A DNA stretch of 44,635 nucleotides. Origin: Gemmatimonadota bacterium. GTDB taxonomy: Bacteria > Gemmatimonadota > Gemmatimonadetes > Longimicrobiales > Gaopeijiaceae. How positions within the stretch are numbered: the first letter of the stretch is position 1; every line of letters starts with the position of its first letter. The stretch lies in assembly GCA_039589315.1 (NCBI GenBank), contig JBDHHQ010000034.1, positions 1 through 44,635 on the forward strand, given 5' to 3'. Under the pieces are notes generated by a model. The model had not been told where the DNA came from. It worked only from the letters and a program-made list of their open reading frames with translations, and searched no databases. Below are positions 9,092 to 32,684 of the stretch, piece after piece. Both the position numbers and the translations under genes were made by a program.

Positions 9092-9241
9092 CAGCGGACC
9101 AGCGAAGACCGCGTGGCGCCCAACGGTGAAGATCCCCTTGGGCGCGAGCGGCAAGAGCGCCTGGCGCCGGTCCATGAGGGCTGGTAACGCCACAACGGAA
9201 GACGGATGCAGATCTAGGCCAGATCCGAGGAGAACGACTGG

Positions 9242-10627
9242 ATGCTGATCACCGGAAAGCACCTCCCCCGGCGGACGTTCCTGCGCGGCGTGGGCGCGAC
9301 TGTGGCGCTGCCGTTCCTGGACGCCATGGTGCCCACCCGCCGGCTGTGGGCCGAGGCCGCGGCCAAGGTCGACCGGACCCGCCTCGTGTGCATCGAGATG
9401 GTCCACGGCGCCGCCGGGTCCAACGAGCTGGGGTCCGAGCTGAACCTCTGGTCTCCCGCCCAGGTGGGTCGGGAGTTCGACCTGAGCACCAGCAGCTTGA
9501 GCCCGCTGGAGGGGTTCCGGGACCATCTGACCATCGTCAGCAACACCGACGTGCGTATGGCCGAGGCGTTCGAGGCCGAGGAGGTGGGCGGCGACCACTT
9601 CCGCTCCAGCGCCACCTTCCTGACTCAGGCCCACCCCAAGCAGACCGAGGGCTCCGACGTCCACGTCGGCACGTCGCTGGACCAGCTGTACGCCCAGCGG
9701 TTCGGACAGGACACGCCTATCCCGTCCCTGCAGCTCTGCATCGAGAACGTGGACCAGGCGGGCGGGTGCGCGTACGGGTACGCGTGTGTCTATACCGACA
9801 CCATCAGCTGGGCGTCGCCGACCGAGCCGCTGCCCATGATCCGGGATCCCCGGGTCGCGTTCGATCAGCTCTTCGGCGCCGGCGGGACGCCCGAGGGACG
9901 GGCGGCGCGGCGCCGGACCAACATGAGCATCCTGGACTGGGTCACGAGCGAGGTGGCCACGATCAAGCGGCAGCTCGGGCCCGCGGACCAGATGCGCATG
10001 GACCGGTACCTGGAGAACATCCGCGAGATCGAGCGACGCATTCAGCGTATCGAGGCCCACAACACCAGCGGCGAGATCCGGGAGCTGCCCGAGGCCCCCG
10101 CAGGCGTGCCCGACTCGTTCGAGGAGCACGTCAAGCTGATGTTCGACCTCCAGGCCCTGGCCTTCGCGTCGGACATGACGCGGGTCTTCTCGTTCAAGAT
10201 GGGGCGGGACGGCTCGGGCCGGGTCTATCCCGGCAGCGGCGTCGAGGAGGGCTTCCACCCGGCTTCGCACCACGGCGGCAAGGAGGATCAGGTCCTCGAC
10301 TTCGCCAAGATCAACCAGTACCACGTCAGCATGCTGCCCTACTTCCTGGAGAAGCTGCAGGAGATCCAGGAGGGCGACGCCAACATGCTGGACAAGACCA
10401 TGATCATCTACGGGTCGCCCATGGGAGACTCGAACCTCCACAACCACAGACGCTGCCCCCTGTTCGTGGCGGGTGGCGCCAACGGCAAGCTGACCGGCGG
10501 CGTTCACGTGAAGGCCCCGGACGGGACGCCCATGGCCAACGTCATGCTGAGCCTCATGCACGACCTGGGGCTCGACGACGTCGAGAGCTTCGGTGACAGC
10601 ACGGGCGATTTCTCGCTCACGGTCTAG
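9242..10627 (+). CDS. DUF1552-domain protein (Tat signal)
   Basis: 'LPRRTFLRGVGATVALPFLDAM', 'SLDQLYA', 'GYACVY..TISW', 'DLQALAF.SDMTRV', 'HPASHH', 'NLHNH'; canonical partner directly after DUF1592; GAGGAG RBS. Confidence 0.9.
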   Translation: MLITGKHLPRRTFLRGVGATVALPFLDAMVPTRRLWAEAAAKVDRTRLVCIEMVHGAAGSNELGSELNLWSPAQVGREFDLSTSSLSPLEGFRDHLTIVSNTDVRMAEAFEAEEVGGDHFRSSATFLTQAHPKQTEGSDVHVGTSLDQLYAQRFGQDTPIPSLQLCIENVDQAGGCAYGYACVYTDTISWASPTEPLPMIRDPRVAFDQLFGAGGTPEGRAARRRTNMSILDWVTSEVATIKRQLGPADQMRMDRYLENIREIERRIQRIEAHNTSGEIRELPEAPAGVPDSFEEHVKLMFDLQALAFASDMTRVFSFKMGRDGSGRVYPGSGVEEGFHPASHHGGKEDQVLDFAKINQYHVSMLPYFLEKLQEIQEGDANMLDKTMIIYGSPMGDSNLHNHRRCPLFVAGGANGKLTGGVHVKAPDGTPMANVMLSLMHDLGLDDVESFGDSTGDFSLTV

Positions 10628-10723
10628 CGTGAGGCAGGCGCCGATGCACCGGCGCTGGAAAGCCGCAGGGTTCTCGGCTGCCACCGGCGCCAGAAGCCCA
10701 AGGAATTCCTGAGGATACGCGGA

Positions 10724-12688
10724 ATGAGGTCGATGAAAGCCAACGGACGCCTGCGAGTCAGTGGCCTGGGCGCGCTGGGGATCATGCTTCTCCTGACCCC
10801 GGCTCCGGCCGAGGCGCCGGTAGCCGACGCGGCCATGACTGGCGACGGGGAAGCGGTTCGGTCGCTACTCAAGAGCGGGGCCGACGTCAACGCCGCCCAG
10901 GGCGACGGGATGACGGCCCTCCACTGGGCTGCGGCGCACGACGATGCGCCGATGGCGGAGATGCTCGTCTACGCGGGCGCCAACCTCGAGGCCACGACCC
11001 GAGTCGGGGCGTATACACCGCTCCTCGTGGCGAGCAAAGCTGGAAGCACGGCCGTGATCCACGCCCTGCTCGAGGCCGGTAGCGACGCCAACGCCCGCAC
11101 GACCACGGGCGTGACTGCCTTGCACCTTGCGGCCGCGGCCGACGACGACGCGTCCATCGAGCAGTTGCTGGCCCACGGCGCGGATGCAGACGTCCGTGAC
11201 TTCTCCCGTGGACAGACCCCGCTGATGTTCGCTGCGGCCAGGAATCGGGTCCGCGCGATCCGTGTGCTGATCGAAGCGGGAGCCGACCCGGGCGTCACCT
11301 CGTTGGTGCTCGATGTTCCCGACCGCGAGAAAGCCGACCGGGAGGACGGGCGTCGCCGCAACGAGCTCATGAAGGCCATGCGCGACGGCGCCCAGGAGCT
11401 CAAGGGTCCGGTCCAGGAGGAGCCACCAACCGCGCCCGAAGGCGGGGAAGGGGCCGAGGAGTCAGAGGAAGCCGAAGACACCGCAGCGGACGGAGCCAAA
11501 CCGGGTGAGGCGGACACCTCGGAGGGCGCGGCGGTTGAAGACGAGGAGGTGGCGGCTACCGAAGCCCGCGACGAAGACGAGGAGGAGGCCGGAACGGAAG
11601 CCGGCGACGAAAGCGAGGACGAGGCCGAGGCAGAAGCCGGCGACGAAAGCGAGGACGAGGCCGAGGCGGACGACGACGAGCCCAAGCCCCTGACCTACGG
11701 CGATCTGGTGGGCGGCCACGGGGGCCTCACCGCACTGCTGCACGCGGCCCGACAGGGCAACACGGAAGCGGTTCTGGCCCTCCTGGACGCGGGCGCCGAC
11801 ATCAACCAGGTCAGCGCGGGCGACCAAACGAGCCCACTCCTGATCGCCACCATCAACGGCCACTTCGACCTGGCCAACGTACTGTTGCAGAAGGGGGCCG
11901 ACCACGGCTTCGCCAGTGACGCCGGGGCCACGCCGCTCTACGCCGCGATCAACGTCCACTGGGCTCCCAAGGCTCTGTACCCTCAGCCCAAAGCGCATGA
12001 ACAACAGGAACTTACATATCTAGACTTCATGCAGATTCTGCTTGATGCTGGCGCCGATCCCAACGTTCGCCTGACCAAGCACCTCTGGTACATGTCGTAC
12101 AACTTCGATCTGCTCGGCGTGGACACGAAGGGCGCCACGACCTTCTGGCGGGCGGCCTACGCCACCGACGTGGATGCCATGAAGCTGTTGGTGGCCCACG
12201 GCGCCGACCCGAACATCCCGACCATGAAGGTGGCCGAGCGGCGGCGGCGTGACGACGGGGGCAAATCGAAGGACGAGGGAGATCCGTCGGGTCTGACGCC
12301 CATACCCGTCGGCGGCCCCGGTGTATATCCGATCCACGCGGCGTCGGGCGTGGGATACGGGAAGGACTTCGCGGCGAACTCCCACCGGCACACGCCGGAT
12401 GGGTGGGTACCGGCGGTCCGGTACCTGGTGGAGGAGCTCGGCGCCGACGTGAATCGGCGGGACCACGAGGGCTACAACGCGATCCACCACGCCGCGTCCC
12501 GAGGCGACGTCGAGCTGATCGAGTACCTGGTCGAGATGGGCGGCGACGTGAAGGCTGTGAGCCGCAAGGGGCAGACCACCGCGGACATGGCGAATGGGCC
12601 GGTGCAGCGGGTCCAGCCGTTCCCCGAGGCCATGGAGCTCCTGGAGAGCCTCGGGTCGGAGAACAACCACAACTGCCTGTCCTGCTGA
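10724..12688 (+). CDS. Secreted ankyrin-repeat protein with an acidic low-complexity insert and a C-terminal CxxC
   Basis: Many ankyrin repeats (GMTALHWAA, YTPLLVAS, GQTPLMFAA, TALLHAA, SPLLIA, GATPLYAA, NAIHHAA); signal peptide; ends 'HNCLSC'. Confidence 0.9.
   Translation: MRSMKANGRLRVSGLGALGIMLLLTPAPAEAPVADAAMTGDGEAVRSLLKSGADVNAAQGDGMTALHWAAAHDDAPMAEMLVYAGANLEATTRVGAYTPLLVASKAGSTAVIHALLEAGSDANARTTTGVTALHLAAAADDDASIEQLLAHGADADVRDFSRGQTPLMFAAARNRVRAIRVLIEAGADPGVTSLVLDVPDREKADREDGRRRNELMKAMRDGAQELKGPVQEEPPTAPEGGEGAEESEEAEDTAADGAKPGEADTSEGAAVEDEEVAATEARDEDEEEAGTEAGDESEDEAEAEAGDESEDEAEADDDEPKPLTYGDLVGGHGGLTALLHAARQGNTEAVLALLDAGADINQVSAGDQTSPLLIATINGHFDLANVLLQKGADHGFASDAGATPLYAAINVHWAPKALYPQPKAHEQQELTYLDFMQILLDAGADPNVRLTKHLWYMSYNFDLLGVDTKGATTFWRAAYATDVDAMKLLVAHGADPNIPTMKVAERRRRDDGGKSKDEGDPSGLTPIPVGGPGVYPIHAASGVGYGKDFAANSHRHTPDGWVPAVRYLVEELGADVNRRDHEGYNAIHHAASRGDVELIEYLVEMGGDVKAVSRKGQTTADMANGPVQRVQPFPEAMELLESLGSENNHNCLSC
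11597..11668 (+). repeat. Two tandem 36-bp units encoding EAGDESEDEAEA
   Basis: gaagccggcgacgaaagcgaggacgaggccgaggc(a/g) at 11597-11632 and 11633-11668. Confidence 0.9.
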
Positions 12689-13792: not shown

Positions 13793-14623
13793 CTAGCTTC
13801 GCCCTGCCGCCCTCCGGCCCACGGGCAGTGCCTCGTCTTCGGTGGCGATGATCACCCGGAAGCCCTGCTCCAGTCGCTCGGCGATGTCGTCCACACCGGC
13901 CGTCACCCCGCACGGCACGCCGAACTCGAGGCACGCAGCCAGAACCGCCTGTATGGCTACCTCCACAGCCACCATGTCACCCCCGTAGGCGCGGCCCAGA
14001 TCTCCCGGGCCGGCGAACACGACGCTCAGGCCCGGCGTGCTCACGATCTCCCGTACGTTCTCGATCCCGGCGCGGTCCTCGACGATCAGCACGTCGATCA
14101 GAAGGCCCTCGGCGTCGCCCGGCCACAGGTCCGGCGTGACCGACACCGAAACCGCCGCCTCCTCCGCGCTGACCACGTGGGGGAATACGATGCCATGGAC
14201 GCCGGCCTCGATCCCCTGGCTCGCCCGGTCCCGTGCCCCGGCGTGGTCTCCGTCGATGGGGGGGATCCGCAGCAACACCGGTTGGGGGTCGACGCCGGCT
14301 TCGGCCGCTGCATCGTGCATGCCGTTCAGGTACGCAATCATGCGCGGCACGTCGAAGGGACCGCTCTCCATTGAGTACAGGATGAAGTCGGCGTCCCGAG
14401 TCTGGACGATGCGGGCGCCCTGTTCGGGCGTCTCGTCTCCCGAGAACGTGCCGAAGACGGCCTGGCCCGACGCGAGCAGCTCGACGAGGGGACTGGGGGG
14501 CATCAGGGAGGTCTCCTGGGCAATCAGTGGTAGGGCGGGGCACACGGCCAGCGCCGCCGCCAACACGAGACCGGCCGAGCGCCAGGGCAGGCGGGACGGT
14601 TCGTGACCGCGACGCCCTCGCAC
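13793..14623 (-). CDS. HpcH/HpaI aldolase/citrate lyase family protein with a predicted signal peptide (start uncertain)
   Basis: 'VLLRIPP', 'GVHGIVFPHV', 'LIVEDRAGIENVREIVSTPG', 'FAGPGDL', 'GVPCG', 'RLEQGFR'; hydrophobic 'AGLVLAAALAVCPALPLIA-QE'. Confidence 0.78.
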   Translation of the reverse strand: MRGRRGHEPSRLPWRSAGLVLAAALAVCPALPLIAQETSLMPPSPLVELLASGQAVFGTFSGDETPEQGARIVQTRDADFILYSMESGPFDVPRMIAYLNGMHDAAAEAGVDPQPVLLRIPPIDGDHAGARDRASQGIEAGVHGIVFPHVVSAEEAAVSVSVTPDLWPGDAEGLLIDVLIVEDRAGIENVREIVSTPGLSVVFAGPGDLGRAYGGDMVAVEVAIQAVLAACLEFGVPCGVTAGVDDIAERLEQGFRVIIATEDEALPVGRRAAGRS

Positions 14624-15149
14624 GGAGGGGCCTGGCTTCGAGCACCAGGGAACAGCGCCGCATGGCAGCCCTGGGCTCCGACGGATCGGGGTACGGGCGG
14701 CGTGCGGGGGGGTCGACGGGGCGATTGCGGCTTGGTTGAGGGTCATGGCTTCGAGATCGCTGGGTCGGCTGGGTGAATCACCGCCGCACGGTCGCATGAC
14801 GGGAACCGTCCCGCAACGGTCCGTCGGCTCGCTCGGAGCGAGCACCCACGGCCTCCGGCTGCCCAGAACCTGGCCTCCGTCTATCAGGTCACCCCGCGCT
14901 CGGGGGACGGCGCCGGCTTCGAAGCCGCCATGCGCGAGCACGTGGACGCCCACACTGTTCGGTGTCGGTGGCCCGGGCCTCGATCCAAGGCCCGGGCCAC
15001 TTCGTTGCGTCGGTATGGCCGGTCTGGTCACGCCCCACGGAGCGCTCCTTCTCTCCGACGCCCTGGAACGGCACTTTCCCGACATACAAGCCGGCAGGGC
15101 CGGCCTATCACTTAACCAATAGGAAGCATTGCACCAGGAGGAGCGAGCC

Positions 15150-15362
15150 GTGGAACGACACATGGAGCAGGTCGAGGTGAGAACCACACCCGACGGGATG
15201 ATCGAGATCGTCCAGCGCTGTGGCGCCGAGCAGCCCGCTGACGTATTCGTCCGGCTGCACCCGGATCAGATCGGGACGCTGACGAGTTGGCTGGCCGAGG
15301 CCCGTACGGAGGTGCAGACGGGAGGGGTCGAGGACGCAGAAGCGTACGCCGCGCAGGGCTAG
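15150..15362 (+). CDS. Small hypothetical protein
   Basis: Strong AGGAGGAG RBS before GTG 15150 (ATG 15162 is an alternative); coding-like composition 'GMIEIVQ...VRLHPDQI..L..WL'. Confidence 0.65.
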   Translation: MERHMEQVEVRTTPDGMIEIVQRCGAEQPADVFVRLHPDQIGTLTSWLAEARTEVQTGGVEDAEAYAAQG

Positions 15363-15455: not shown

Positions 15456-15869
15456 ATGGCCTATCGGATTCGTCGGGTCGACTACTTCCACGGCACGGTC
15501 CCCGATCAGCCGGGAGAGGCGTACAAGCTCCTCGCGGCGCTGGCCGATCTGGGCGTCAGCCTCCTGGCCTTCACCACGGTTCCCGTGGGACCCACCCACA
15601 CGCAGGTGACCTTGTTCCCCTCCGACACCCCCAGGCTCGAAGCCGAAGCCGGCAGGGCGGGCCTGTCGCTGGAGGGACCGCACCGGGCTCTCCTGGTCCA
15701 GGGCGACGACGAGCTGGGCGCCCTTGCGGGGATTCACGCCCGCCTCGCCGACGCCAACATCAATGTGTACGCCTCCAGCGGGGTGACGGACGGGCGCGGC
15801 AGCTTCGGGTACGTCGTCTACGTTCGACCGAAGGACTTCGACAAGGCGGCGACGGTTCTGGGCGTCTGA
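15456..15869 (+). CDS. Tandem ACT-domain protein
   Basis: Two ACT-like repeats 'VPDQPGEAYKLLAALADLGVSL' and 'GDDELGALAGIHARLADANINV'; GGAGGTG RBS. Confidence 0.85.
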   Translation: MAYRIRRVDYFHGTVPDQPGEAYKLLAALADLGVSLLAFTTVPVGPTHTQVTLFPSDTPRLEAEAGRAGLSLEGPHRALLVQGDDELGALAGIHARLADANINVYASSGVTDGRGSFGYVVYVRPKDFDKAATVLGV

Positions 15870-15887
15870 ATCCCGCGGGGACCGTCC

Positions 15888-18800
15888 ATGGCGCGAGCTC
15901 TCGAAGAGAACCTCAGACGAACGGCGATCCCCGTCGAGATCCCGGAAGAGCACCTGCTCCTCCTGGAGATCACTGACCACCTGCACGGGGTAAGGCGCCA
16001 GACCGAGGCGCTCCTCCGTGAGATCCACCACCGCTATGCCGGATGGGCCCAGACGCTCGAGGATCTCCATCGCCATGCGATGGGAGACTTCTATCACTAC
16101 AACAATCACCCCCGAGGGACCGAAGCGCTCGAGATCTTTATGGATCTCTACGCCCGGGTGGCGGCGCAGGCGGTGCCGGACACCGTGCGCCACGACGGTG
16201 TTCGCCGCTGGCTCTCCTATGCCGAGAAGATCGCTCGCGAATCGGGGCAGGCCGCGCAGCGGAATACGCGAGCCCTGGCAGTCGCTCTGGCCAGGCTGCG
16301 AGAGGACTTCGCGATCGCCCCCGCGCACCGGGTGACGGCGTCCGCCGGACTGAAACGGCTCGGCATCGTTCTCGCGGCTTCTCCGGGGAGCCTCGGGACG
16401 ACGAATGAGTCCGGCTCATCGGCATCTTCCCCTGCGGGCATCCCTGGCCAACCCGACGCCCAATGGCCGCGGGAGCTCCTGGATCGCACCCTGGGCCTGC
16501 TGGCGGACGCCTTGGACGAGACGTACGCGAGCTGGCTGGAGCGGGACGATCCAGCGCTCTGGTTGGACGGAGATGACGCGTCGGATCGGCCACGGGCGGG
16601 AGGCCTGCCGCCGGGGCCCGGCGAGGAGGATCCGCTGCCTGTGGCACACGCCGCCCTGACCCGGTACCAGGAAAGCCTGCGCGAGCTCGACCGGAGCGGA
16701 CCGCTAGTGGACTGCTCGGCCGAGCTCCTCACGCTGCCGGATAACGGCCAGCTCGTGCGGTGCTACCTGGAGAGGGGACGGGCGCTCCCGGCCAGGGAGA
16801 CGGTCGGGGGGGCGCGGCAGCGGATCCGCTGGTTCTCCCGGACGTTGAAGCAGGAGGGCCTGACTTCACTGCACGGAGCCGCCCTGGGGGAGATTCGGCG
16901 CTGCTGCGCCGCCGTGCTGACCACCGCGGGCGAAGCCGAAGGACAGCGGTTCGTGGAAGAGGTCCTGGAGCTGATCAGGGCCGGAGGATTCACCAGCTCC
17001 GTTCCCGGTCTCGATCTCGTGGGCACGCTGGGGCGAGAGGTCATCGCCACGGGCAAGCCTCCGTGGGTGGAGACCGTGGTGGACGGGATCGTCGATCTGG
17101 ACTTCCAGTATCCGGCCTTCTCGGGGTACACGGAGGAGTGGAAGGTGCGGGTGAACCCGGCCCACCTCCACAACGTCCGCACGTACCTGGCGATCATCGA
17201 AGCAGACCCGGGCCTGGCGCGCCGGCTCGTCGCCGCCCTGGTCACGCAGCTGAAGCTCGGCGGTACCTTCCTCGCCGATACGGATCTGTTCCAGCGAGAC
17301 ATCTCGTCCCTGCTCAGCCGGCCCATCGAGCCCGTCTACGACCAGGTCAAGCACCTGCTGAAGCTGTTCCCTGCCTACTTCACCGACATCGGCGCCGAGG
17401 GGGATCTCCGGGTCGTGTCCACCCAACTGGACGAGATCCGGGGCCGCGCGGACCCCCTCTGCCACTTCATCCGGAAGCTGAGCCACGTGGAGAGCAATCC
17501 TCTGCTGGTCCCGTTCGTGGAGGACGTGGCCCGCTTCTGGGCGGACGGCGATCCCACACACGTGCGGCGATACCTTCCGGACAAGCTGTACGAGAGCCTG
17601 GACATCCAGGATCCCAACTACCAGAGCCTGCACCGCATCTTCGGCGCTCTGGCCCAGGATGAGGGCGGGATCGAGGCCCTCTTCGGGTTGGAGACGGCGG
17701 ATGTCGAGGCGAAGCTCCGAGAGCTCACCGAGGAGCAGCCCACCGACCTGGAAAAGGCCCGCCTGCTCTTCAAGGTCCGTGAGGAGATCGCCCGGAAGTA
17801 CCGGCTGGACTCGACCGGCCTGCTGGAGCGGCTGGCAACGTGCAGCTTCGTAGACGCGTCTCGGGTAGTCGGCTTGGGAGAGGCTCTGCAGGAGCAGCGA
17901 GAAGACCAGTCCCTCGAGATCCTCCTGGAGATCCTGGAGGAGCTGCAGGCCGTCATCTGTACCCCCGGCGCCCCCGAGCCTGCCGAGGACATCTACCTCA
18001 AGCGCCACGTCGCGGTCGGGATTCCCAGCATGTATGGGTCGTACCGGGAAAAGCGCTTCGAAGCGATCGGGCTGTCGTTCCGGGTCGAAGCGCTGACCAC
18101 GGCCATGTTCGCGCGGCGGCTCGCGGCGGTGGATCTGAGCGGCCTGGACGCCGGGGGCCTATCGACCGTGGCCGATTGGCTGCGCCTGCTGATCCGGGCG
18201 CTTCGCGTGGACGGCTGCGCCTCGCACGGGTTGGACGCGAGCCTGGAGATGCTGGACCAGGCCGTGTCGACACCTGGTGTCACCCGGCACCAGTTCATCA
18301 ACGTCTTCCAGCTCTTTTCGCGCGCCATCGAGCGGTTGGTCCAGCAGCGGTTTCTGGCGGTCTACGAGGACACGGTGGAACGGGTCGTCGAGCGCCGGGC
18401 CGCCAGGGGGTTGCAGCCGGATTCGGTCGGCGCGAACGGGCCCGGAAGCGTGGTGGCTCGTTCGGAGGAGCTGGTCCGCGAGCTGATCGCCGACACCTTC
18501 GGGCTGTCGCTCCTGGACTCGCTCGTGGCCCGGGTCCTTCGAGGTCTGGCCGAGCAAGGCCAGCCCACCGAGGCGGGGGACCCAGGCACCGTCCGGGGAA
18601 CGCCCGCACCGGCGGAACGTTGGGCAGTGCCGCTCTCGGGCGCGTCGGACGAGCGAGACGGCATACTCCACCTGGGGAACAAGGGGTACATGCTGAGGCG
18701 TCTGACGCAGCACGGCTTCCCGGTGCCGCCAGGCTTCATCCTGACCACCGAGCTCTTCAAGGCCAGATCGTCGGCCGGGCAGGCGTGGGACCCGCGCCGA

Positions 18801-20144
18801 AGCCTCGCCCCTCTGCTCGAAGACCAGGTGCGCAGAATCGAGGCGTGGGGCACGTCGCGGTTCGGCGACCCGAGCCGACCGCTCCTCCTCTCCGTCCGAG
18901 GCGGGGCCCCCGTCAGCATGCCCGGTATGTTGGACAGCTTCCTGAACGTGGGCATCAACCAGGAGATCGCCGCGGGGGTCGCGGCCCTCCGCGGCCGGCC
19001 CTGGGCCGCTTGGGACGCCTACCGTCGATTCCTCCAGTTCTGGGGCATGAGCCAGGGGGTGGACCGGGACCTGTTCGACGACCTCATCCGAGCTGCCAAA
19101 CGACGGGCCTCGGTGCCAAAGAAGGCGCTGCTGCCGTGGAGGGAGATGCGGGGGTTGGCCGGGCGATACCGTGAGCTCCTCGGGGATCACGGTGTCTCGT
19201 TCATCGACGATCCGTTCGAACAGTTGCTGGCCTGTGTCGAGATGGTGGTCCGCTCCTGGGATTCGGACAACGCCCGCCTGTACCGCCGGGAGCTCCAGAT
19301 CGCCGAGTCGTGGGGCACTGCGGTGATCGTCCAGAGCATGGTGCTGGGCAACCTGCACGATCACTCCGGGACCGGCGTCGCCCTGACCCGCCCCGCAAGG
19401 GCAGTGGCCGGTCGGGTCGACCTCCATGGCGACTTCATCATCCAGGGCCAGGGCGACGACGTGGTGAGCGGCCTGGTCGCCACCTTCCCCTTGGCCGAGG
19501 GGCAACGCGACGCGGAGGCGGATGTGTCGGGCAGGTCCCTCGAGAGCGACTTCCCCGCGGTACATGCCCGGCTGGCCGAGATCGCCAACGCCCTGATCTT
19601 CGAGCACGGCTTCGCCCACCAGGAGCTGGAGTTCACCTTCGAGAGCGAGAGGCCCGAGGACGTGTACGTACTGCAGGCCCGTGACAAGGTGCTGGCAGGG
19701 ACTCGGACCGTGGCGGCCTTCCTGCCCACGGAGGCCTTGGAGCATTCTCGGCTCGGCACGGGTATCGGGGCCGGCGGGGGTGCGCTATCGGGCCGGGTCG
19801 CACAGAGCGCAGAAGAGATCGAACGGCTCTCGCGTCAGTTCCCCGGCGACCCCATCATTCTGCTCCGGCCTGACACTGTGCCCGACGACGTGCACCTGGT
19901 GTTGCGCGCGGAGGGCGTGCTGACGGCGCTGGGGGGGGCAACGAGCCACGCGGCGGTCATCACCCAACTGCTGGGGAAGACGTGCGTCGTCGGATGTCGC
20001 CAGCTCGAGATCGTGAACGGCGCGATGACCCTGGGGGGGCGTCCCCTGACTCCGGGGGACCACCTGTCCATCAGCGGATTGGACGGCTCGGTCTACCTGG
20101 GCAGCCATGCGGTGGTCGATACGAAGATCCGGGGTCGAGGATGA
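15888..20144 (+). CDS. Giant PPDK-like dikinase: ~920-aa unknown N-terminal region, PPDK ATP-grasp domain and phospho-His swivel domain, with no PEP/pyruvate-binding barrel
   Basis: PPDK motifs start near aa 929: 'LGNKG', 'GFPVPPGF', 'PLLLSVRGGAPVSMPGMLDSFLNVG', 'DAYRRFLQ', 'GTAVIVQSMVLGN', 'SGTGV', 'QGDDVVSG', 'ELEFTFE', 'YVLQAR', 'GGATSHAAV' (His near aa 1354); protein ends just after 'SISGLDGSVYLG'. Confidence 0.88.
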   Translation: MARALEENLRRTAIPVEIPEEHLLLLEITDHLHGVRRQTEALLREIHHRYAGWAQTLEDLHRHAMGDFYHYNNHPRGTEALEIFMDLYARVAAQAVPDTVRHDGVRRWLSYAEKIARESGQAAQRNTRALAVALARLREDFAIAPAHRVTASAGLKRLGIVLAASPGSLGTTNESGSSASSPAGIPGQPDAQWPRELLDRTLGLLADALDETYASWLERDDPALWLDGDDASDRPRAGGLPPGPGEEDPLPVAHAALTRYQESLRELDRSGPLVDCSAELLTLPDNGQLVRCYLERGRALPARETVGGARQRIRWFSRTLKQEGLTSLHGAALGEIRRCCAAVLTTAGEAEGQRFVEEVLELIRAGGFTSSVPGLDLVGTLGREVIATGKPPWVETVVDGIVDLDFQYPAFSGYTEEWKVRVNPAHLHNVRTYLAIIEADPGLARRLVAALVTQLKLGGTFLADTDLFQRDISSLLSRPIEPVYDQVKHLLKLFPAYFTDIGAEGDLRVVSTQLDEIRGRADPLCHFIRKLSHVESNPLLVPFVEDVARFWADGDPTHVRRYLPDKLYESLDIQDPNYQSLHRIFGALAQDEGGIEALFGLETADVEAKLRELTEEQPTDLEKARLLFKVREEIARKYRLDSTGLLERLATCSFVDASRVVGLGEALQEQREDQSLEILLEILEELQAVICTPGAPEPAEDIYLKRHVAVGIPSMYGSYREKRFEAIGLSFRVEALTTAMFARRLAAVDLSGLDAGGLSTVADWLRLLIRALRVDGCASHGLDASLEMLDQAVSTPGVTRHQFINVFQLFSRAIERLVQQRFLAVYEDTVERVVERRAARGLQPDSVGANGPGSVVARSEELVRELIADTFGLSLLDSLVARVLRGLAEQGQPTEAGDPGTVRGTPAPAERWAVPLSGASDERDGILHLGNKGYMLRRLTQHGFPVPPGFILTTELFKARSSAGQAWDPRRSLAPLLEDQVRRIEAWGTSRFGDPSRPLLLSVRGGAPVSMPGMLDSFLNVGINQEIAAGVAALRGRPWAAWDAYRRFLQFWGMSQGVDRDLFDDLIRAAKRRASVPKKALLPWREMRGLAGRYRELLGDHGVSFIDDPFEQLLACVEMVVRSWDSDNARLYRRELQIAESWGTAVIVQSMVLGNLHDHSGTGVALTRPARAVAGRVDLHGDFIIQGQGDDVVSGLVATFPLAEGQRDAEADVSGRSLESDFPAVHARLAEIANALIFEHGFAHQELEFTFESERPEDVYVLQARDKVLAGTRTVAAFLPTEALEHSRLGTGIGAGGGALSGRVAQSAEEIERLSRQFPGDPIILLRPDTVPDDVHLVLRAEGVLTALGGATSHAAVITQLLGKTCVVGCRQLEIVNGAMTLGGRPLTPGDHLSISGLDGSVYLGSHAVVDTKIRGRG

Positions 20145-20216
20145 TCTCGGCCGGCAGTGTGGTGGCTGTCGAGCACCACACCGGACAATGAACGCACAGA
20201 GGAGATCGTGGACTCA

Positions 20217-21479
20217 ATGAGCAAGCCTCGGCCCAGCGAGCCGCTGGGCATCAACGGCCTGGGCCGGATCGGCAAGCTTACGCTCTGGCATCACGCGTTC
20301 CGGAAGCACTTCCCCGAGATCGTGGTCAATCTGGGCCGCGAGGCGGGTCGAGACCTGGAGGCGGTGTGCCAGACCATCGAGAAGGACTCCACCTACGGGA
20401 GCATGCACCGCTTCCTCTACGGGGTGGGTGCCGAGCCCTGCGTGAAGATCGTGGACCGGGAGCGGAAGCTGCTGACCGTGGCTGGCGTGCCAGTTCATGT
20501 ATTACAGGAAGCAAGAAATCCTAAAGATATCAAGTGGAGAGAGCTAGGGGTGCGAATCGTCGTTGACACGACGGGCGCGTTCGGTGATCCGACCACCGCG
20601 CCGGAAGCGTCCGGCGGGGCGCTCCGTGGCCATCTGGAAGCCGGGGCCGAGAAGGTCCTGTACAGCGCGGCGTTCAAGATCAAGGACAAGACGCGCTCAC
20701 GGCCGGACGATTCCGTGCTGCTCATCTACGGCATCAATCACGAGGTCTTCGATCCTGCGAAGCACGACCTCGTCTCCGCGGCCTCCTGCACGACCACGGC
20801 CTTGGCCCACATGGTCAAGCCCATCCTGGACCGTCTCAAGTACTCCAACATGCTCACCGCCGCCATGAGCACGGTCCACGCCGTGACCAACAGCCAGGGC
20901 GTGCTCGACACGGTCCCCAAGGCCGGCGCGAAAGACCTGCGCAGGACCCGCAGCGCCCTCAACAACCTGATCCTCACGTCCACCAACGCCGCCGCGGCCC
21001 TCGAGCAGGTCATCCCGGAGATCAGCGAGATCGGCTTCATGGCCGATTCCGTGCGGGTGCCCCTCCTCACGGAGTCGCTGATCGTCCTGAACGTGACCTT
21101 CCAGTCGCGTCTCAAGCCCGACGGCAATCCGACAGTCACCCGGGAAGCGCTGAACGGGATCTACCAGGAGGTCTCCCAAAACGAGCAGCAGGGCCTGCTC
21201 GTGTACAGCGAGGAGCAGAACGTCTCCGTCGATGTCATGGGCATGAAGGCCGCGGTGGTCATCGAGGGCGTCGAGACCCACACTCGAACGGGCTTCGTCC
21301 ACGTCGACCTGTCCACTCTGCCTGGTCTCGACGAGGAGCTGGTCGCCCGGCTCGACTCGCCGATCGCGACCGTGCCCGTGACGCATGCCAAGGTGTGCGG
21401 CTGGTACGACAACGAGTATGGCAGCTACACGAACCTGCTGGCCGATCTGACGGTACACGTGCGGGAGCAGCTCGACTGA
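20217..21479 (+). CDS. gap: Divergent glyceraldehyde-3-phosphate dehydrogenase family protein
   Basis: 'GINGLGRIG', 'VVDTTGAF', 'HLEAGAEKV', 'ASCTTTAL' (catalytic Cys), 'STVHAVT' (His), 'SVRVP', 'WYDNE'; AGAGGAG RBS (GTG 20208 is an alternative start). Confidence 0.85.
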   Translation: MSKPRPSEPLGINGLGRIGKLTLWHHAFRKHFPEIVVNLGREAGRDLEAVCQTIEKDSTYGSMHRFLYGVGAEPCVKIVDRERKLLTVAGVPVHVLQEARNPKDIKWRELGVRIVVDTTGAFGDPTTAPEASGGALRGHLEAGAEKVLYSAAFKIKDKTRSRPDDSVLLIYGINHEVFDPAKHDLVSAASCTTTALAHMVKPILDRLKYSNMLTAAMSTVHAVTNSQGVLDTVPKAGAKDLRRTRSALNNLILTSTNAAAALEQVIPEISEIGFMADSVRVPLLTESLIVLNVTFQSRLKPDGNPTVTREALNGIYQEVSQNEQQGLLVYSEEQNVSVDVMGMKAAVVIEGVETHTRTGFVHVDLSTLPGLDEELVARLDSPIATVPVTHAKVCGWYDNEYGSYTNLLADLTVHVREQLD

Positions 21480-21501
21480 ACCGGCAGACCGCAGGGGCCA
21501 C

Positions 21502-22365
21502 ATGCGCGTAAGCGGCTTCACCATCCTCCGGAACGGGGTCAAGTTCGGCTACCCGTTCCAGGAGAGCATCCGGTCGCTCCTTCCCCTCGTGGACGAGATG
21601 GTCGTCGCCGTGGGGGACAGCGAGGACGACACCCGCGACCAGGTCCTGGCCGTCGACTCGTCCAAGATCCGCGTCGTGGACACCGTATGGGACATGTCCA
21701 AGCGGGTCGAAGGGATGGCCCTGTCCGAACAGACCGATCTGGCGTTGGAGCAGTGCACCGGCGACTGGTGTTTCTACCTCCAGGCCGACGAGGTGCTGCA
21801 CGAGAAGGACCACGACAGGATCCGGGCCAAGATGCACAGGTACCTGGACCGACCGGCCGTCGAGGGCCTGTGGTTCGGCTATGTCCACTTCCGGGCTGAC
21901 TACGACATCCGGGACACGCTGGGGTACCTGCGGGAAGTCCGAATCGTCCGTAACCGCGTCGGGATCCGCTCGCGGGGGGACGCTTGCGGGTTCTACCGGG
22001 GGAACGGGAGTCCTCTCCGCGCACGGGCGTTCGGAGGCACCAAGCCCGTGGGAGCCTACGTGTATCACTACGGGGGAGTGCGCCCGCCCCGGGTACAGGG
22101 TCTGCGGGTGGCGACGTTCCACCGTCTGTACGACGACGGCGCCCTGGGCGACCTGCCTCCCGACGATCAGGTGGACGACTGGGTCTACGACTACCGCGGC
22201 TGCGTGCCCTACTCGGGCTCGCACCCGGCGGTGATGGCCGGCCGCATCGCCAGCATGGACTGGGAGCGCCCGCCCTTCGATCCGGTCCCTCGCTGGCGTG
22301 ACCCGTACTGGTGGCGGGCGCGGCTCAAGAAGGCCGGGCTCCTGCCACGACGCTGGGCGGAATGA
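21502..22365 (+). CDS. Glycosyltransferase family 2 protein
   Basis: 'VSGFTILRNG...YPF.ESIRSLLPLVDEMVVAVGDSED', 'DWCFYLQADEVLHE', 'YHYG.VRPP', 'HPAVM'. Confidence 0.85.
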   Translation: MRVSGFTILRNGVKFGYPFQESIRSLLPLVDEMVVAVGDSEDDTRDQVLAVDSSKIRVVDTVWDMSKRVEGMALSEQTDLALEQCTGDWCFYLQADEVLHEKDHDRIRAKMHRYLDRPAVEGLWFGYVHFRADYDIRDTLGYLREVRIVRNRVGIRSRGDACGFYRGNGSPLRARAFGGTKPVGAYVYHYGGVRPPRVQGLRVATFHRLYDDGALGDLPPDDQVDDWVYDYRGCVPYSGSHPAVMAGRIASMDWERPPFDPVPRWRDPYWWRARLKKAGLLPRRWAE

Positions 22366-22453: not shown

Positions 22454-22942
22454 TCACCGGTTCTGGGGCGGTCCTTCCCGGGCGCCGCAGCGATGCGGTC
22501 CCGGTCCCCGCCGCCAGGCGGCCCAATTCGGGTATCCGGTCTCGTTCCTGAGCACCACCGCCGTCTCCCCCATGCGGACCTCGGCGGCGATCATCTGCAT
22601 CTCACCGTCCACCTCGACCATGGAGCCCGTCACCTCGACCTCCGCCCCCTCCTCCAGCTGCTCCTCCTGATTGTCGAGGTACCATGCGGGACCCAGGTGC
22701 ACGTTAAGGGTACCGTCGGGTGTGGACAGCTCCGCATGAACGCCTTCCCCCCAACCGCGGCGCTTCGCCGTGACTCGCTCGACGGCGAGGATCTCGCCCG
22801 TCACCGTCTCCACGGTGGCTGCGTCGTAGTAGGGACCTTGCGGGTCCGCCGTGTAGCATGCGCACTGGCCCTCCAACGTCCCGACCACCCCCACGATCAG
22901 CGCACCGGCCAACAGGACGGCGACCGCCACGCGATGGAACAT
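22454..22942 (-). CDS. Exported OB-fold protein (resembles the MamS/MamX-like domain family)
   Basis: Signal peptide; 'YDAATVETVTGEI', 'VHLGPAWYL', 'GAEVEVTGS', 'IAAEV', 'LRNETGYPNW'; GGGAGGG RBS. Confidence 0.75.
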   Translation of the reverse strand: MFHRVAVAVLLAGALIVGVVGTLEGQCACYTADPQGPYYDAATVETVTGEILAVERVTAKRRGWGEGVHAELSTPDGTLNVHLGPAWYLDNQEEQLEEGAEVEVTGSMVEVDGEMQMIAAEVRMGETAVVLRNETGYPNWAAWRRGPGPHRCGAREGPPQNR

Positions 22943-23600: not shown

Positions 23601-23837
23601 CTGTTCCCGGCTCTGCAGTGTCGGCGTGACTCATCGTTGGCGGCGGGGTGTCCGGGGTCGGGCGGCGCGACGCGCCCCGTTTCCCGGAGCGCCTGAGACA
23701 GACCCCGCACTCCCGCGGCGGTTCCGGCCAGGCCGGTGGCGGTCCCGGCCGATTGGCCCCTATTGTGCCGAGACCCGGCCAGGCGATCCGCACGCCGAGC
23801 CCAACTGCCTCGACCAACTTCGCCCTGCGAGGGTCCC

Positions 23838-24455
23838 ATGAACGCCGGCGTCAGCCTGGTCCGTGCCTATCTGCTCCTCAACGGGTACTTCACGGCGACC
23901 GACATTCCGGTGATTCGCCAGAGCACCAAGGGGGGCTACCGGGAGCTCACGGACATCGACGTGATGGGCGTACGCTTTCCATTCGCGGCCCACGTGGTGC
24001 CCATGGGCGAGCCGGGGCCCCACGACGACCTGAGCCTGCCTATCGATCCCAAGCTCGAGATCGACGAGAGCGTCGTGGACGTGATCGTCGCCGAGGTGAA
24101 GGAGGGACGGCCGCAGCTGAACGCCATGTTCCGGACCGACGATGCGCTCGAACGGGCTCTGGCCCGCCTGGGTTGTGTGCCCCCCGAGCGGACGGAAGAG
24201 GTGGTGAAGATGCTGCAGGAGTCGGGTGTCGCGCGCCTCGAGGGCGAGGGCCTCCCGGCTACGTGCCGCATCCGCCTGATGGCGTTCGGGGCCGGTCAGA
24301 CCGGACAACGAGAGGGATACTCGGTGGTCTCGCTCCGGCGGGCCGCGCGCTTCGTGGCCCGCAACCTCCGCGACTACCACCACGTGATCCGGCCCGCGCG
24401 CATCAACGACCCCTTCATGGGGATCCTCCACTTCCTCGAGAAGATCTCGCCCTAG
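23838..24455 (+). CDS. Hypothetical protein with PD-(D/E)xK nuclease-like motifs
   Basis: '[12 protein letters not shown]', '[11 protein letters not shown]', 'VIVAEVKEG'; strong coding bias; GAGGG before ATG 23838. Confidence 0.7.
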
Positions 24456-24622
24456 CGGCCGCCCCATGGGGCACCGTCGAGCAGAGGGCGCCGTGGTCGC
24501 GGGGGTGGGGGTTCCCGCAGCGGGACACCCGGCACTTCCAGCCCGCTCGCGGGTTCATCGGGGACGGTGGGGCCGGTAGATTCCGCCGAGGTTCGGCGGG
24601 TGAGGGAGCCGGCCGGAAACCC

Positions 24623-25885
24623 ATGCGAACGAGGCGAGCCAGCGTGAGCGTCTGGCCGAGAAGACGATCCGTCGACGTGGACATCGGCGGGGTGAAGGTG
24701 GGGGGATCCAATCCCGTGGTGGTCCAGTCCATGACCAATACGGACACGGCCGACGTCGCCTCCACGGTGACTCAGGTGAAGGAGCTCTCCGACGCGGGCA
24801 GCGAGCTGGTCCGAGTGACCGTGAACAACGACGCATCGGCCGCGGCCGTGCCGGAGATCACGGCGCGGCTCGCCGACGACGGCTACGCGGTCCCGATCAT
24901 CGGCGACTTCCACTACAACGGACACCTGCTCCTCACCAGGCACCCGAACTGCGCCCGGGCTCTGGCCAAGTACCGGATCAACCCGGGCAACGTGGGCACG
25001 AAGCACAGGGACGCGAACTTCACGGCCATCGTCAACGTGGCCATCGAGCACGACAAGCCCGTGCGCATCGGCGTCAACTGGGGCTCGCTCGATCAGCGGC
25101 TCCTCACCGAGCTCATGGACGAGAACGCGCGTCGCTCAGAGCCCAAGGACGCGCAGGAGGTCCTCCGGGACGCCATGGTCGAGAGCGGCATGCGCTCGGC
25201 CGCGCTGGCCGAGGAGACGGGGCTGGGTCACGACAAGATCCTGATCAGTGCCAAGGTGTCCGGGGTGCCGGACCTGGTGGCCGTCTACAAGCAGCTGGCG
25301 CCGTTGAGCGACTATCCCCTCCATCTGGGCCTCACGGAGGCGGGCATGGGCGCCAAGGGCATCGTGGCGACGACGGCCGGCCTCACACCCCTCCTGATCG
25401 ACGGCATCGGCGACACGATCCGGGTTTCCCTCACGCCCCGCCCTGGAGGCGACCGCGCGGAAGAGGTCCGGGTGGCCCAGCAGGTCCTCCAGTCACTGGG
25501 CATCCGGAGCTTCCAGCCCCAGGTGACGTCCTGTCCGGGCTGCGGCCGGACGACCAGCACGTTCTTCCAGGAGATGGCCGAGGACATCGAGGCCTACCTC
25601 CGGGAGAGCATGCCCGAGTGGCGCACCCGGTATCCGGGGGTCGAGGAGTTGGACGTGGCGGTCATGGGGTGCGTCGTGAACGGCCCCGGCGAGTCCAAGC
25701 ACGCGAACCTGGGCATCTCGCTGCCCGGCACGTTCGAGGAACCGAAGGCTCCGGTGTACGTGGACGGCGAGCACTACACGACCCTCAAGGGCGAGGGGCT
25801 CGTCGAGGAGTTCAAGGGGATCCTGGACGACTACGTCCAGCGGCGTTACGGCGGTGGCGTGCCCGCGGAGCGCTCGGCCGGGTAG
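24623..25885 (+). CDS. ispG: (E)-4-hydroxy-3-methylbut-2-enyl-diphosphate synthase (flavodoxin)
   Basis: '[11 protein letters not shown]', 'IGDFHYNGH', 'RINPGN', 'RIGVNWGSL', 'LHLGLTEAG', '[10 protein letters not shown]', 'SCPGCGRT', '[12 protein letters not shown]'. Confidence 0.96.
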
Positions 25886-26668: not shown

Positions 26669-27859
26669 ATGAGCTTCTCGAAGCGATTCCTCGCAGCCGT
26701 CACCGGGCTGATCGTGGTGGGCCTCATGGTCGGGGGCATGTGGTATCGCCTTCGACCCGGGGCGGGTCGGGAGGGAGCCCAGGCCGCCGAGACGGCCGAC
26801 GCGGCCCTGCCGGACGTCTCCGCGACCCAGCAGTTCGCCACCGACGTCGCACAGCCCGTCTCGGGCGCCACGGTGCGGCAGGACACGCTCTGGATCACGG
26901 TCACGGCCGCCGGGCAGGCCGACGCGATCCAGGAGGCCGTGCTGACCGCCCGCGTGGAGGGGGTGGTGGAGCGGGTCCCGGTCGGAGAGAACGCACCGGT
27001 CGGCCCCGGGCGGGTGCTCTTGCAGATCGACTCCACCGAGTACGCCCTGGAGACGGCTCAGGCTCGGGCCGAACAGGTGGCGGCCGAGGCCGAGTTTCTG
27101 CGGACGACGCTGTTCAACGACGAGATCGAGGACCCTGAGGTACGAGCCCAGCGCGAGCGTCTGGCGCGCTCCTCCAGCGGCCTCGATCAGGCCGAGGTCG
27201 AGCTTCAGAAGGCCGCCCTCGATCTGGAGCGGACCACCGTGCAAGCCCCCTTCGCGGGCCGAGTGGCCGACATCCGGGTCGACCCCGGACAGTTCGTTTC
27301 GGTGGGGGACGAGCTCATGACCGTGGTGGACCTGGACCCCATCAAGGTCGAGGTCCAGGTATTGGAGGCCGAGGTGGCCTTCCTCGCCGAAGGCCGCCGC
27401 GCAGCGGTGTCGTTCGCCGCCTTTCCGGGCGAGTCGTTCTCGGCTCGCATCGTATCCATCAATCCGAAGGTGGACCCGGAGACCCGTACCGCCCGGGTGA
27501 CGCTGCACCTGGCCAACCCGGATCACCGCATCAAGCCCGGCATGTACGCCCGCGTGTCCCTCGATGCCCAATCGTTTCCCGACCGGATCCTGGTGCCCCG
27601 GTCCGCGCTGCTGGAGCGGGACCGGCGGCCCATGCTGTTCGTCTACGACGGTGACGAGGGTGCGGGTCGGGCGGAGTGGCGGTACGTGTGCCCCGGCCTC
27701 GAGAGCGACTCCATCGTGGAGGTGGTGTCCCCGTGCGAGGAGGGCGAGGTGGCGCCCGGAGAGATCGTCCTGGTGGACGGTCACCACTACCTCGTCCACG
27801 ACGCCATCGTGCGCCTCGTGGACGAACCGGCCCGAGAAGGAGGGAGGCCCGGACGATGA
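26669..27859 (+). CDS. RND efflux periplasmic adaptor (membrane fusion protein)
   Basis: N-terminal TM; 'ARVEGVVERVPV.E', 'TVQAPFAGRV', 'INPKVDPETRT', 'IKPGMYA', 'VPRSAL'; GAGGGAG RBS. Confidence 0.92.
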   Translation: MSFSKRFLAAVTGLIVVGLMVGGMWYRLRPGAGREGAQAAETADAALPDVSATQQFATDVAQPVSGATVRQDTLWITVTAAGQADAIQEAVLTARVEGVVERVPVGENAPVGPGRVLLQIDSTEYALETAQARAEQVAAEAEFLRTTLFNDEIEDPEVRAQRERLARSSSGLDQAEVELQKAALDLERTTVQAPFAGRVADIRVDPGQFVSVGDELMTVVDLDPIKVEVQVLEAEVAFLAEGRRAAVSFAAFPGESFSARIVSINPKVDPETRTARVTLHLANPDHRIKPGMYARVSLDAQSFPDRILVPRSALLERDRRPMLFVYDGDEGAGRAEWRYVCPGLESDSIVEVVSPCEEGEVAPGEIVLVDGHHYLVHDAIVRLVDEPAREGGRPGR

Positions 27860-29289: not shown

Positions 29290-29340
29290 TGCGTCCCGAC
29301 CTGCGGCCGGGCCGGCGTGCTCGGGAATCGGGGCGCTGAC

Positions 29341-32682: not shown

Positions 32683-32684
32683 CC

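Follow-up and report, generated by a model that had tools for sequence, protein, structure and literature searches.

A 1418-amino acid (aa) dikinase of the pyruvate, orthophosphate dikinase (PPDK) type that lacks the pyruvate barrel, designated DIK, and a divergent glyceraldehyde-3-phosphate dehydrogenase (GAPDH), designated gapX, are encoded side by side in a Gemmatimonadota contig (JBDHHQ010000034.1; its positions 1 to 44,635 are referred to as the window). DIK and gapX constitute a real, widespread and apparently unstudied two-gene module that represents a variant of the swivel dikinases. With a probability of roughly 0.4, DIK is a pyrophosphate-forming 3-phosphoglycerate dikinase that makes 1,3-bisphosphoglycerate for gapX, which would act as an NADPH-dependent GAPDH. 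The two genes and the parts of DIK are arranged as follows.

15888-20144, + strand: DIK, the barrel-less PPDK-type dikinase and core of the module
15888..17054, + strand: DIK residues ∼1–389, a weakly conserved, HEAT-like helical solenoid (model pLDDT 91)
17055..18137, + strand: DIK residues 390–750, a conserved helical core with one β-hairpin (model pLDDT 89)
18138..18572, + strand: DIK residues ∼751–895, a four-helix bundle that leads into the ATP-grasp domain
18660..19697, + strand: PPDK-type ATP-grasp domain of DIK with invariant K932, R1004, R1047, D1191, E1246, E1248, Q1263 and R1265
19725..20132, + strand: C-terminal His-swivel domain of DIK with T1352-S-H1354 (His codon 19947-19949)
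20217-21479, + strand: gapX, a 420-aa divergent class I GAPDH (start ATG 20217)

The association of DIK with gapX is observed far beyond the window. A GTDB scan confirmed at least 285 stretches with DIK, and the 80 loci kept from it belong to Desulfobacterota, Bacteroidota, Atribacterota, Thermoleophilia, Nitrospirota, Acidobacteriota and one Fibrobacter-labelled record; the scan also found DIK in rumen Bacteroidales. gapX is located beside DIK in 48 of the 67 GTDB loci with enough downstream DNA (27 on the same strand and 21 convergent), and 12 of the 19 informative loci without gapX are from Bacteroidota. Among 80 metagenome loci, 57 were informative, and gapX lies beside DIK in 55 of them. 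When 50 of the 80 source genomes were analyzed, gapX was present in 34 of 36 non-Bacteroidota genomes and in none of the 14 genomes from Bacteroidota or Fibrobacter. In a sample of 301 Desulfobacterota genomes, drawn evenly from the phylum to which Desulfoferrobacter belongs, 86 genomes carry gapX and 81 carry DIK. The two genes occur together in 80 genomes, compared with 23 expected by chance, and gapX alone, DIK alone and neither gene are seen in 6, 1 and 214 genomes, respectively. The two genes are adjacent, within 6 kb, in 65 of the 80 genomes that hold both. These counts bear out the proposal of an earlier note on this DNA that the dikinase and the GAPDH form a dedicated two-enzyme module, which a lack of co-location in other genomes was to have refuted. 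Kin genomes are not independent in such counts, yet the link between DIK and gapX recurs across phyla.

In the phylum of the window, DIK was found in 0 of 250 other sampled genomes and is present in a genome of the same genus (G796), and its occurrence there is therefore sporadic. Genome G409 contains two complete DIK–gapX modules (C41 and C139), and genome G406 carries two equally scoring gapX copies (C1). The DIK motifs shown for the Fibrobacter-labelled contig (L037) are identical to those of a Bacteroidales locus (L055), by transfer or bin contamination. A complex prediction for DIK residues 330–895 and gapX returned no answer (score 0.00) and provides no evidence either way.

The C-terminal region of DIK retains the nucleotide site and the swivel of PPDK. 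Pfam assigns PPDK_N to residues 973–1197 and PEP-utilizers to residues 1321–1375, and it detects neither a PEP-utilizers_C (PF02896) barrel nor any match in residues 1–900. The C-terminal 518 residues match solved PPDK structures (PDB 1vbg, 1kbl and 1dik) with an E value of ∼5e-72. In an alignment of 176 DIK members, restricted to proteins above 1300–1340 aa, each of the ATP-grasp residues listed above is conserved in 176 of 176 full-length members, and the catalytic H1354 residue is present in 174 rows, the other two being gaps. The ATP-grasp and His residues align to K22, R92, R135, D280, D321, E323, Q335, R337 and H455 of C. symbiosum PPDK, to which, with the exception of Lys22, we assign roles that we take to be established for that enzyme. 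The role of Lys22 in the nucleotide site is described in PMC4844700. Judged from these residues, the machinery that converts ATP and inorganic phosphate (Pi) to His-phosphate, AMP and pyrophosphate (PPi) is intact in DIK, and because the ATP-grasp and swivel residues are conserved, the first half-reaction should be PPDK-like. In NCBIfam, DIK scores 323.8 bits with the PPDK model TIGR01828 (cut-off 843.45) and 51.6 bits with the phosphoenolpyruvate (PEP) synthase model TIGR01418 (cut-off 739.75). It thus lies below both cut-offs, and its ATP-grasp domain is PPDK-type and not PEP synthase (PEPS)-type by these scores (324 vs 52 bits).

Source databases label DIK relatives as pyruvate,orthophosphate dikinase, and the family is mislabelled. 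The tail that follows the catalytic His consists of 13–92 residues in all 176 aligned members, compared with 454 residues in the window genome's own full PPDK. The label and the PPDK-type ATP-grasp domain would favor an ordinary pyruvate-to-PEP dikinase that either borrows a barrel in trans or binds pyruvate at a new site and whose link to gapX reflects gluconeogenic clustering. Such a function is very unlikely. The window genome, which also encodes ordinary gap and pgk genes and Enzyme I, is already equipped with a full PPDK as well as a PEP synthase; a PEP-utilising barrel is found in 49 of 50 DIK genomes, in 45 of them within a PPDK-sized frame of at least 850 aa; and in mycobacteria, Rv1127c, which has no barrel either, contributes no PPDK flux (PMC8094261). 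A gene for a free-standing barrel is not a recurring neighbor of DIK, and a split PPDK with its barrel in trans is unlikely.

The N-terminal region of DIK comprises ∼900 residues and is helical, and the predicted model of residues 1–920 has a pLDDT of 91 and a pTM of 0.88. The most conserved part of this region is a small polar core and not the solenoid. Conservation is maximal at residues 450–550 and 700–750, where it equals the level of the ATP-grasp domain. The core (residues 390–750) contains 20 invariant polar residues, each conserved in 176 of 176 members: H426, D464, E504, R508, D515, R520, R529, K530, H533 and K637, followed by Y638, E700, K705, R706, H707, S714, Y716, Y719, E721 and R732. 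Ten of the 20 residues are Arg, Lys or His. The invariant polar core resembles a pocket that would bind a small anionic compound, and residues 390–750 constitute the putative acceptor-binding site.

Fold searches with the model of residues 1–920 yielded generic solenoid and bundle matches only, with a best Foldseek E value of 1.4e-4 (TM 0.15) and a best VIA match with a Z score of 10.6 and a root-mean-square deviation (rmsd) of 2.6 over 95 residues. For the model of residues 390–750, Foldseek found no match at E ≤ 0.001, and the best fold match has a Z score of 6.5 (rmsd 3.2, 85 residues). Rifampin phosphotransferase (RPH; 5hv1_A) aligns to the core with a Z score of 5.9 (rmsd 2.1, 56 residues), a score tied with those of unrelated helical rows. 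A profile of the core matched nothing in PDB sequences or Pfam, and an Atlas search returned only the family's own clusters, below 0.9, and nothing once the PPDK families were skipped. The lack of fold and family matches is no proof of a new fold. Of 120 DIK relatives among the matches listed, 14 bear a hemerythrin domain (PF01814) at the N-terminus, possibly an oxygen or iron sensor (for example, P0007, P0011, P0012, P0015 and P0019); of the hemerythrin-bearing relatives, one is named Myxococcales and one Myxococcota.

gapX is a relative of the class I GAPDHs that scores 291 bits with TIGR01534, below the cut-off of 367.2. The equivalents of Cys149, His176, Thr179 and Arg231 are invariant in 45 of 45 gapX sequences (catalytic Cys codon at 20787-20789), and the substrate-phosphate site is kept with Thr179, Arg231 and a basic residue at position 195, in what we take to be the usual GAPDH numbering. 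Where ordinary GAPDHs have Asn-Asp32, 101 of 101 gapX sequences have N-x-G-R. Lys replaces Arg13 in 101 of 101 and Thr replaces Asn152 in 100 of 101, and gapX carries family-specific insertions. By these residues, gapX is a GAPDH of the phosphorylating type that lacks Asp32. In a quick tree of 66 sequences randomly drawn from 147, the gapX clade is set off by a long branch of 2.1 changes per column with a support of 100. gapX scores far below the cut-offs of the long GapB model NF006139 (119 bits, cut-off 431), from which it is also separated as its own branch in the tree, of the ArsJ-associated GAPDH model NF033735 (160 bits, cut-off 450) and of the erythrose-4-phosphate dehydrogenase (Epd) model TIGR01532 (118 bits, cut-off 530.55). 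Thr179 is kept in gapX and lost in Epd.

The loss of Asp32 and the fixed Arg suggest that the cofactor of gapX is NADP(H). In GAPDH, Asp32 contacts the 2′-hydroxyl group of NAD+ and has to rotate out of the way to accommodate NADPH, and the NADP-preferring plant GapA retains Asp32 (PMC3728087). Because plant GapA keeps this residue, the loss of Asp32 in gapX is a hint and not a clean rule.

The Bacteroidales provide a second view of the partner enzyme. Among 201 Bacteroidales genomes, DIK is found in 19 and gapX in 8, and all eight gapX genomes have DIK, adjacent in seven. A long PRK08289-type GAPDH (NF006139) is present in 31 of the 201 genomes. It accompanies DIK in 10 of the 11 genomes that have DIK but not gapX, is found in 0 of the 8 with gapX and occurs in 21 of the 182 that lack DIK, and none of the 19 DIK genomes combines it with gapX. 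In the sole DIK genome with neither GAPDH form, the DIK locus lies on a short contig. In six of six sequences, the long form is likewise without Asp32 and shows an Arg residue close by. Its closest PDB match is 8jb1, and NF006139 detects only Corynebacterium glutamicum among 14 controls. We take the long form to be the NADP-using GapB/GapX of C. glutamicum and Pseudomonas putida PP_2149 to be the same long GAPDH type. GapB purified from P. putida has a preference for NADP+, and the role assigned to GapB enzymes is gluconeogenic (PMC12663938). Almost all DIK genomes therefore contain one of the two Asp32-less GAPDHs, gapX or the long form.

Since either gapX or long GapB accompanies DIK in Bacteroidales, a diffusible shared metabolite is favored over gapX as a protein substrate. 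It is quite improbable that DIK is a protein-directed phosphotransferase or scaffold that docks through its solenoid and phosphorylates or regulates gapX, or functions as an Enzyme I powered by ATP, with HPr as its target. The large HEAT-like solenoid, the hemerythrin fusions in 14 of 120 listed matches and the ptsN, rapZ and EIIA genes found upstream in 11 of 80 loci would agree with such a function. However, 11 of the 19 Bacteroidales DIK genomes lack gapX, conservation peaks in the small polar core and not in the solenoid, the genes resembling the phosphotransferase system (PTS) are confined to one or two lineages, and none of 13 Bacteroidota genomes has an Enzyme-I-sized PF02896 match. We rejected the idea that ordinary gap forms a clade of its own linked to DIK in Bacteroidales, since the clade of the adjacent gene is common in DIK-less genomes. 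In four Bacteroidales loci with the order gap-DIK(-gapX) (L083:5631-6632, L084:5689-6702, L089:5931-6926 and L091:9087-10088), the upstream short GAPDH belongs to a long-branch clade with an altered S-loop and may be a second specialised partner.

To the observed architecture, conserved residues and linkage, the proposed mechanism would add an acceptor, a cofactor and a direction. DIK and gapX would provide a second route across the 3-phosphoglycerate/1,3-bisphosphoglycerate/glyceraldehyde-3-phosphate step, beside phosphoglycerate kinase (PGK) and the NAD-dependent GAPDH. The His1354 swivel would bring phosphate to the basic core of the N-terminal region, where 3-phosphoglycerate would be phosphorylated on its carboxyl group with the use of ATP and Pi and the release of AMP and PPi. 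gapX would reduce the resulting acyl phosphate, 1,3-bisphosphoglycerate, with NADPH. Removal of PPi would pull the DIK step further, and the likely role would be gluconeogenesis at low energy charge. At somewhat less than even odds, DIK would be the first acyl-phosphate-forming dikinase, with a new acceptor fold and perhaps with direct transfer of 1,3-bisphosphoglycerate to the NADPH-GAPDH, in a PPi-linked bypass of PGK and GAPDH.

The reverse PGK reaction has a value of +18.5 kJ/mol, and the conversion of ADP and Pi to AMP and PPi one of about −15 kJ/mol. From these textbook values, the DIK step is calculated to be approximately +3 to +4 kJ/mol, compared with +18.5 kJ/mol for the PGK reverse reaction. 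The window genome encodes a membrane H+-pyrophosphatase, and a family I soluble pyrophosphatase was not found in this 95%-complete genome (family II was not searched), so that the energy of PPi could be partly recovered.

Because its chemistry lies near equilibrium, DIK could run in reverse. In the oxidative direction, gapX would make NADPH and 1,3-bisphosphoglycerate, and DIK would regain ATP from AMP and PPi, which acyl-CoA ligases and ATP sulfurylase would supply in syntrophs and sulfate reducers. We regard use mainly in this direction as improbable. Most DIK carriers (Syntrophales, Syntrophobacteraceae and Desulfobacterales) are not known to use sugars. PPDK operates in the corresponding direction in PPi-dependent glycolysis (PMC4598745), and both the presence of DIK in rumen Bacteroidales and the failure to find a family I pyrophosphatase in the window genome would suit it, but gluconeogenesis is the role given to GapB enzymes of the NADP type (PMC12663938).

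Several observations weigh against the 3-phosphoglycerate dikinase reading. The DIK core matches no known fold, and 3-phosphoglycerate is the acceptor that we infer. gapX differs from ordinary GAPDHs at Tyr178/Asp181, Asn152 and often Gly209, which may mean another substrate, and its use of NADP is read from one loop although plant GapA, with Asp32, prefers NADP (PMC3728087). DIK and gapX are non-adjacent in 15 of the 80 Desulfobacterota genomes that hold both, and 21 of the 48 adjacent pairs are convergent (for example, in the Syntrophales loci L004–L009, L011 and L014) and therefore not co-transcribed; the linkage is kept all the same. The alternation of gapX and long GapB in Bacteroidales comes from about two lineages and is therefore overstated by Fisher values, and the gene for the long GAPDH does not adjoin DIK. 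Finally, pgk is retained in 50 of 50 DIK genomes, and thus no genome needs the DIK route.

The changes in gapX also bear on whether the pair acts on another phospho-sugar or short acid, or whether DIK phosphorylates a hydroxyl or enol group near the triose-phosphate node. We consider this unlikely. Swivel dikinases accept many substrates (PMC4844700), the long separate branch of gapX (2.1 changes per column) comes with changed S-loop residues, and gapX without DIK is rare (6 of 86 Desulfobacterota and 0 of 8 Bacteroidales genomes with gapX), although an ordinary NADP-GAPDH would not require DIK. Nevertheless, the substrate-phosphate site of gapX is kept, a long GapB-type enzyme is present where gapX is missing, and neither a third enzyme nor a transporter is found repeatedly in different lineages.

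The genomic context restricts the role of the pair to an addition. pgk was found in all 50 DIK genomes examined, with a few copies partial or broken, and DIK–gapX is therefore an add-on; strict replacement of PGK is ruled out. The PGK substitute proposed in the earlier note thus stands as a parallel route and falls as a replacement, in the window genome as in the others. Five DIK genomes (G271, G272, G285, G287 and G298) encode a divergent second PGK-family protein (240–275 bits, frames of 430–560 aa). The recurring metabolic neighbors of DIK are gap, pgk (11 of 80 loci) and tpi (12 of 80 loci), with the order gap-DIK-gapX-pgk-tpi in locus L097, and the other neighbors are lineage-specific. 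In nine Desulfobacterales-type loci (L031, L046, L051, L061, L069, L070, L072, L080 and L100), DIK–gapX follows a pterin-binding (AcsE-like) gene and DUF3786. Genes further upstream in these loci presumably encode acetyl-CoA synthase subunits, judged by their N-termini.

In the window, DIK and gapX lie between two local neighbors that are outside the conserved module.

15456-15869, + strand: ACT gene, encoding a 137-aa stand-alone double-ACT protein (Pfam ACT)
21502-22365, + strand: GT2 gene, encoding a 287-aa protein (GT2 at the Pfam cut-off)

The four + strand open reading frames reported earlier within 15456-22365 were confirmed, as were their common orientation and short gaps, which measure 18, 72 and 22 bp when gapX is counted from ATG 20217. 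This ATG is preceded by AGGAG at 20200, and its frame is open from GTG 20157. Third-position GC is 0.86–0.89 in the four genes and 0.77–0.89 in three other window genes. A scan of the four-gene block, which performed at chance level, found neither promoter-like sites nor + strand terminator-like sites, and no RNA holder is listed for the region; co-transcription of the four genes is putative.

The short gaps and the same order in genome G796 would be consistent with a system of four genes, with ACT adjusting DIK and the glycosyltransferase drawing on the product, as in capsule modification of the Cj1418 type. This assignment is largely refuted and extremely unlikely. tblastn detected ACT and GT2 in 0 of 180 other DIK loci (80 GTDB, 20 further and 80 metagenome loci). 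The ACT profile, which scores 242 bits on the window, had no match in the first 100 loci and one weak 23-bit match (L134) in the last 80. The ACT family is large (3811 homologues) and has members in four relatives without DIK, and the order ACT-DIK-gapX-GT2 is kept only in G796. The inclusion of ACT and GT2 in the system, as earlier supposed, is accordingly dropped, and the conserved unit is the two genes DIK and gapX, not four.

On the opposite strand, the block is flanked by an HpcH/HpaI aldolase-family gene (13793-15187) and by a gene for a small exported-looking protein without a Pfam match (22454-22942). Elsewhere, the window contains a consecutive Planctomycete-type cytochrome c/DUF1592 gene, DUF1552 gene and ankyrin-repeat gene (6626-12688) and an RND efflux cluster (26669-35825) in which two AcrB-family genes in tandem accompany genes for a membrane-fusion and an outer-membrane protein. 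In the 745-aa reading frame at 23648-25885, the ispG (GcpE) match spans residues 343–726, and the listed start of this frame probably lies upstream of the true one.

Natural variants of the lower glycolytic trunk, which is near-ubiquitous, are very few (PMC4598745). If true, the formation of 1,3-bisphosphoglycerate by a dikinase would be a new variant of this trunk and would supply a PPi-linked PGK/GAPDH bypass to about a quarter of Desulfobacterota and to scattered members of other anaerobic phyla. It would also explain how energy-limited syntrophs and sulfate reducers drive gluconeogenesis or recycle AMP and PPi. Whatever its acceptor, the DIK family is common (81 of 301 sampled Desulfobacterota) and contains an unmatched conserved domain. 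A literature search, whose scope left out supplements and most subscription papers, found no study of the DIK–gapX pair or of the DIK family, in line with the earlier statement that no characterised pathway has this pairing.

By model cut-offs, DIK falls outside the PPDK, PEPS, RPH and mycobacterial barrel-less families. PPDK (EC 2.7.9.1; TIGR01828; PDB 1vbg, 1kbl and 1dik) shares with DIK the ATP-grasp and His-swivel domains, the nucleotide-site residues and the T-S-H motif, but PPDK has a C-terminal pyruvate barrel and DIK has the unmatched ∼900-aa N-terminal region. Glucan water dikinase and Cj1418 also reuse the ATP-grasp and swivel domains with a swapped acceptor domain. The mycobacterial barrel-less PpdK Rv1127c (NF004531) has PPDK-type ATP-grasp and swivel domains without the barrel, as in DIK; unlike DIK, it has no N-terminal acceptor region (534-position model) and is tied to the methylcitrate cycle and not to a GAPDH (PMC8094261). 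DIK scores 274.7 bits with NF004531, below the cut-off of 456. RPH and PigC/RedH/HapC resemble DIK in the reuse of ATP-grasp and swivel domains with a separate acceptor domain, and the swivel of RPH is located at the C-terminus as in DIK; RPH is PEPS-type and releases Pi, whereas DIK is PPDK-type (PMC4844700). The domain order is ATP-grasp, acceptor domain and swivel in RPH, compared with new N-terminal region, ATP-grasp and swivel in DIK, which scores 14–27 bits with the swivel-dikinase family models (14 bits with the RPH model NF041857, cut-off 999). The NADP-preferring gluconeogenic GapB enzymes (B. subtilis; long form NF006139) lack Asp32 and have an Arg nearby, like gapX, but are not in the gapX clade, and gapX (∼415 aa) has its own insertions and is tied to a dikinase. 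PGK (EC 2.7.2.3) makes the product proposed for DIK, 1,3-bisphosphoglycerate, through a fold unrelated to DIK; it converts ATP to ADP without a phospho-His and is kept alongside DIK in all 50 genomes.

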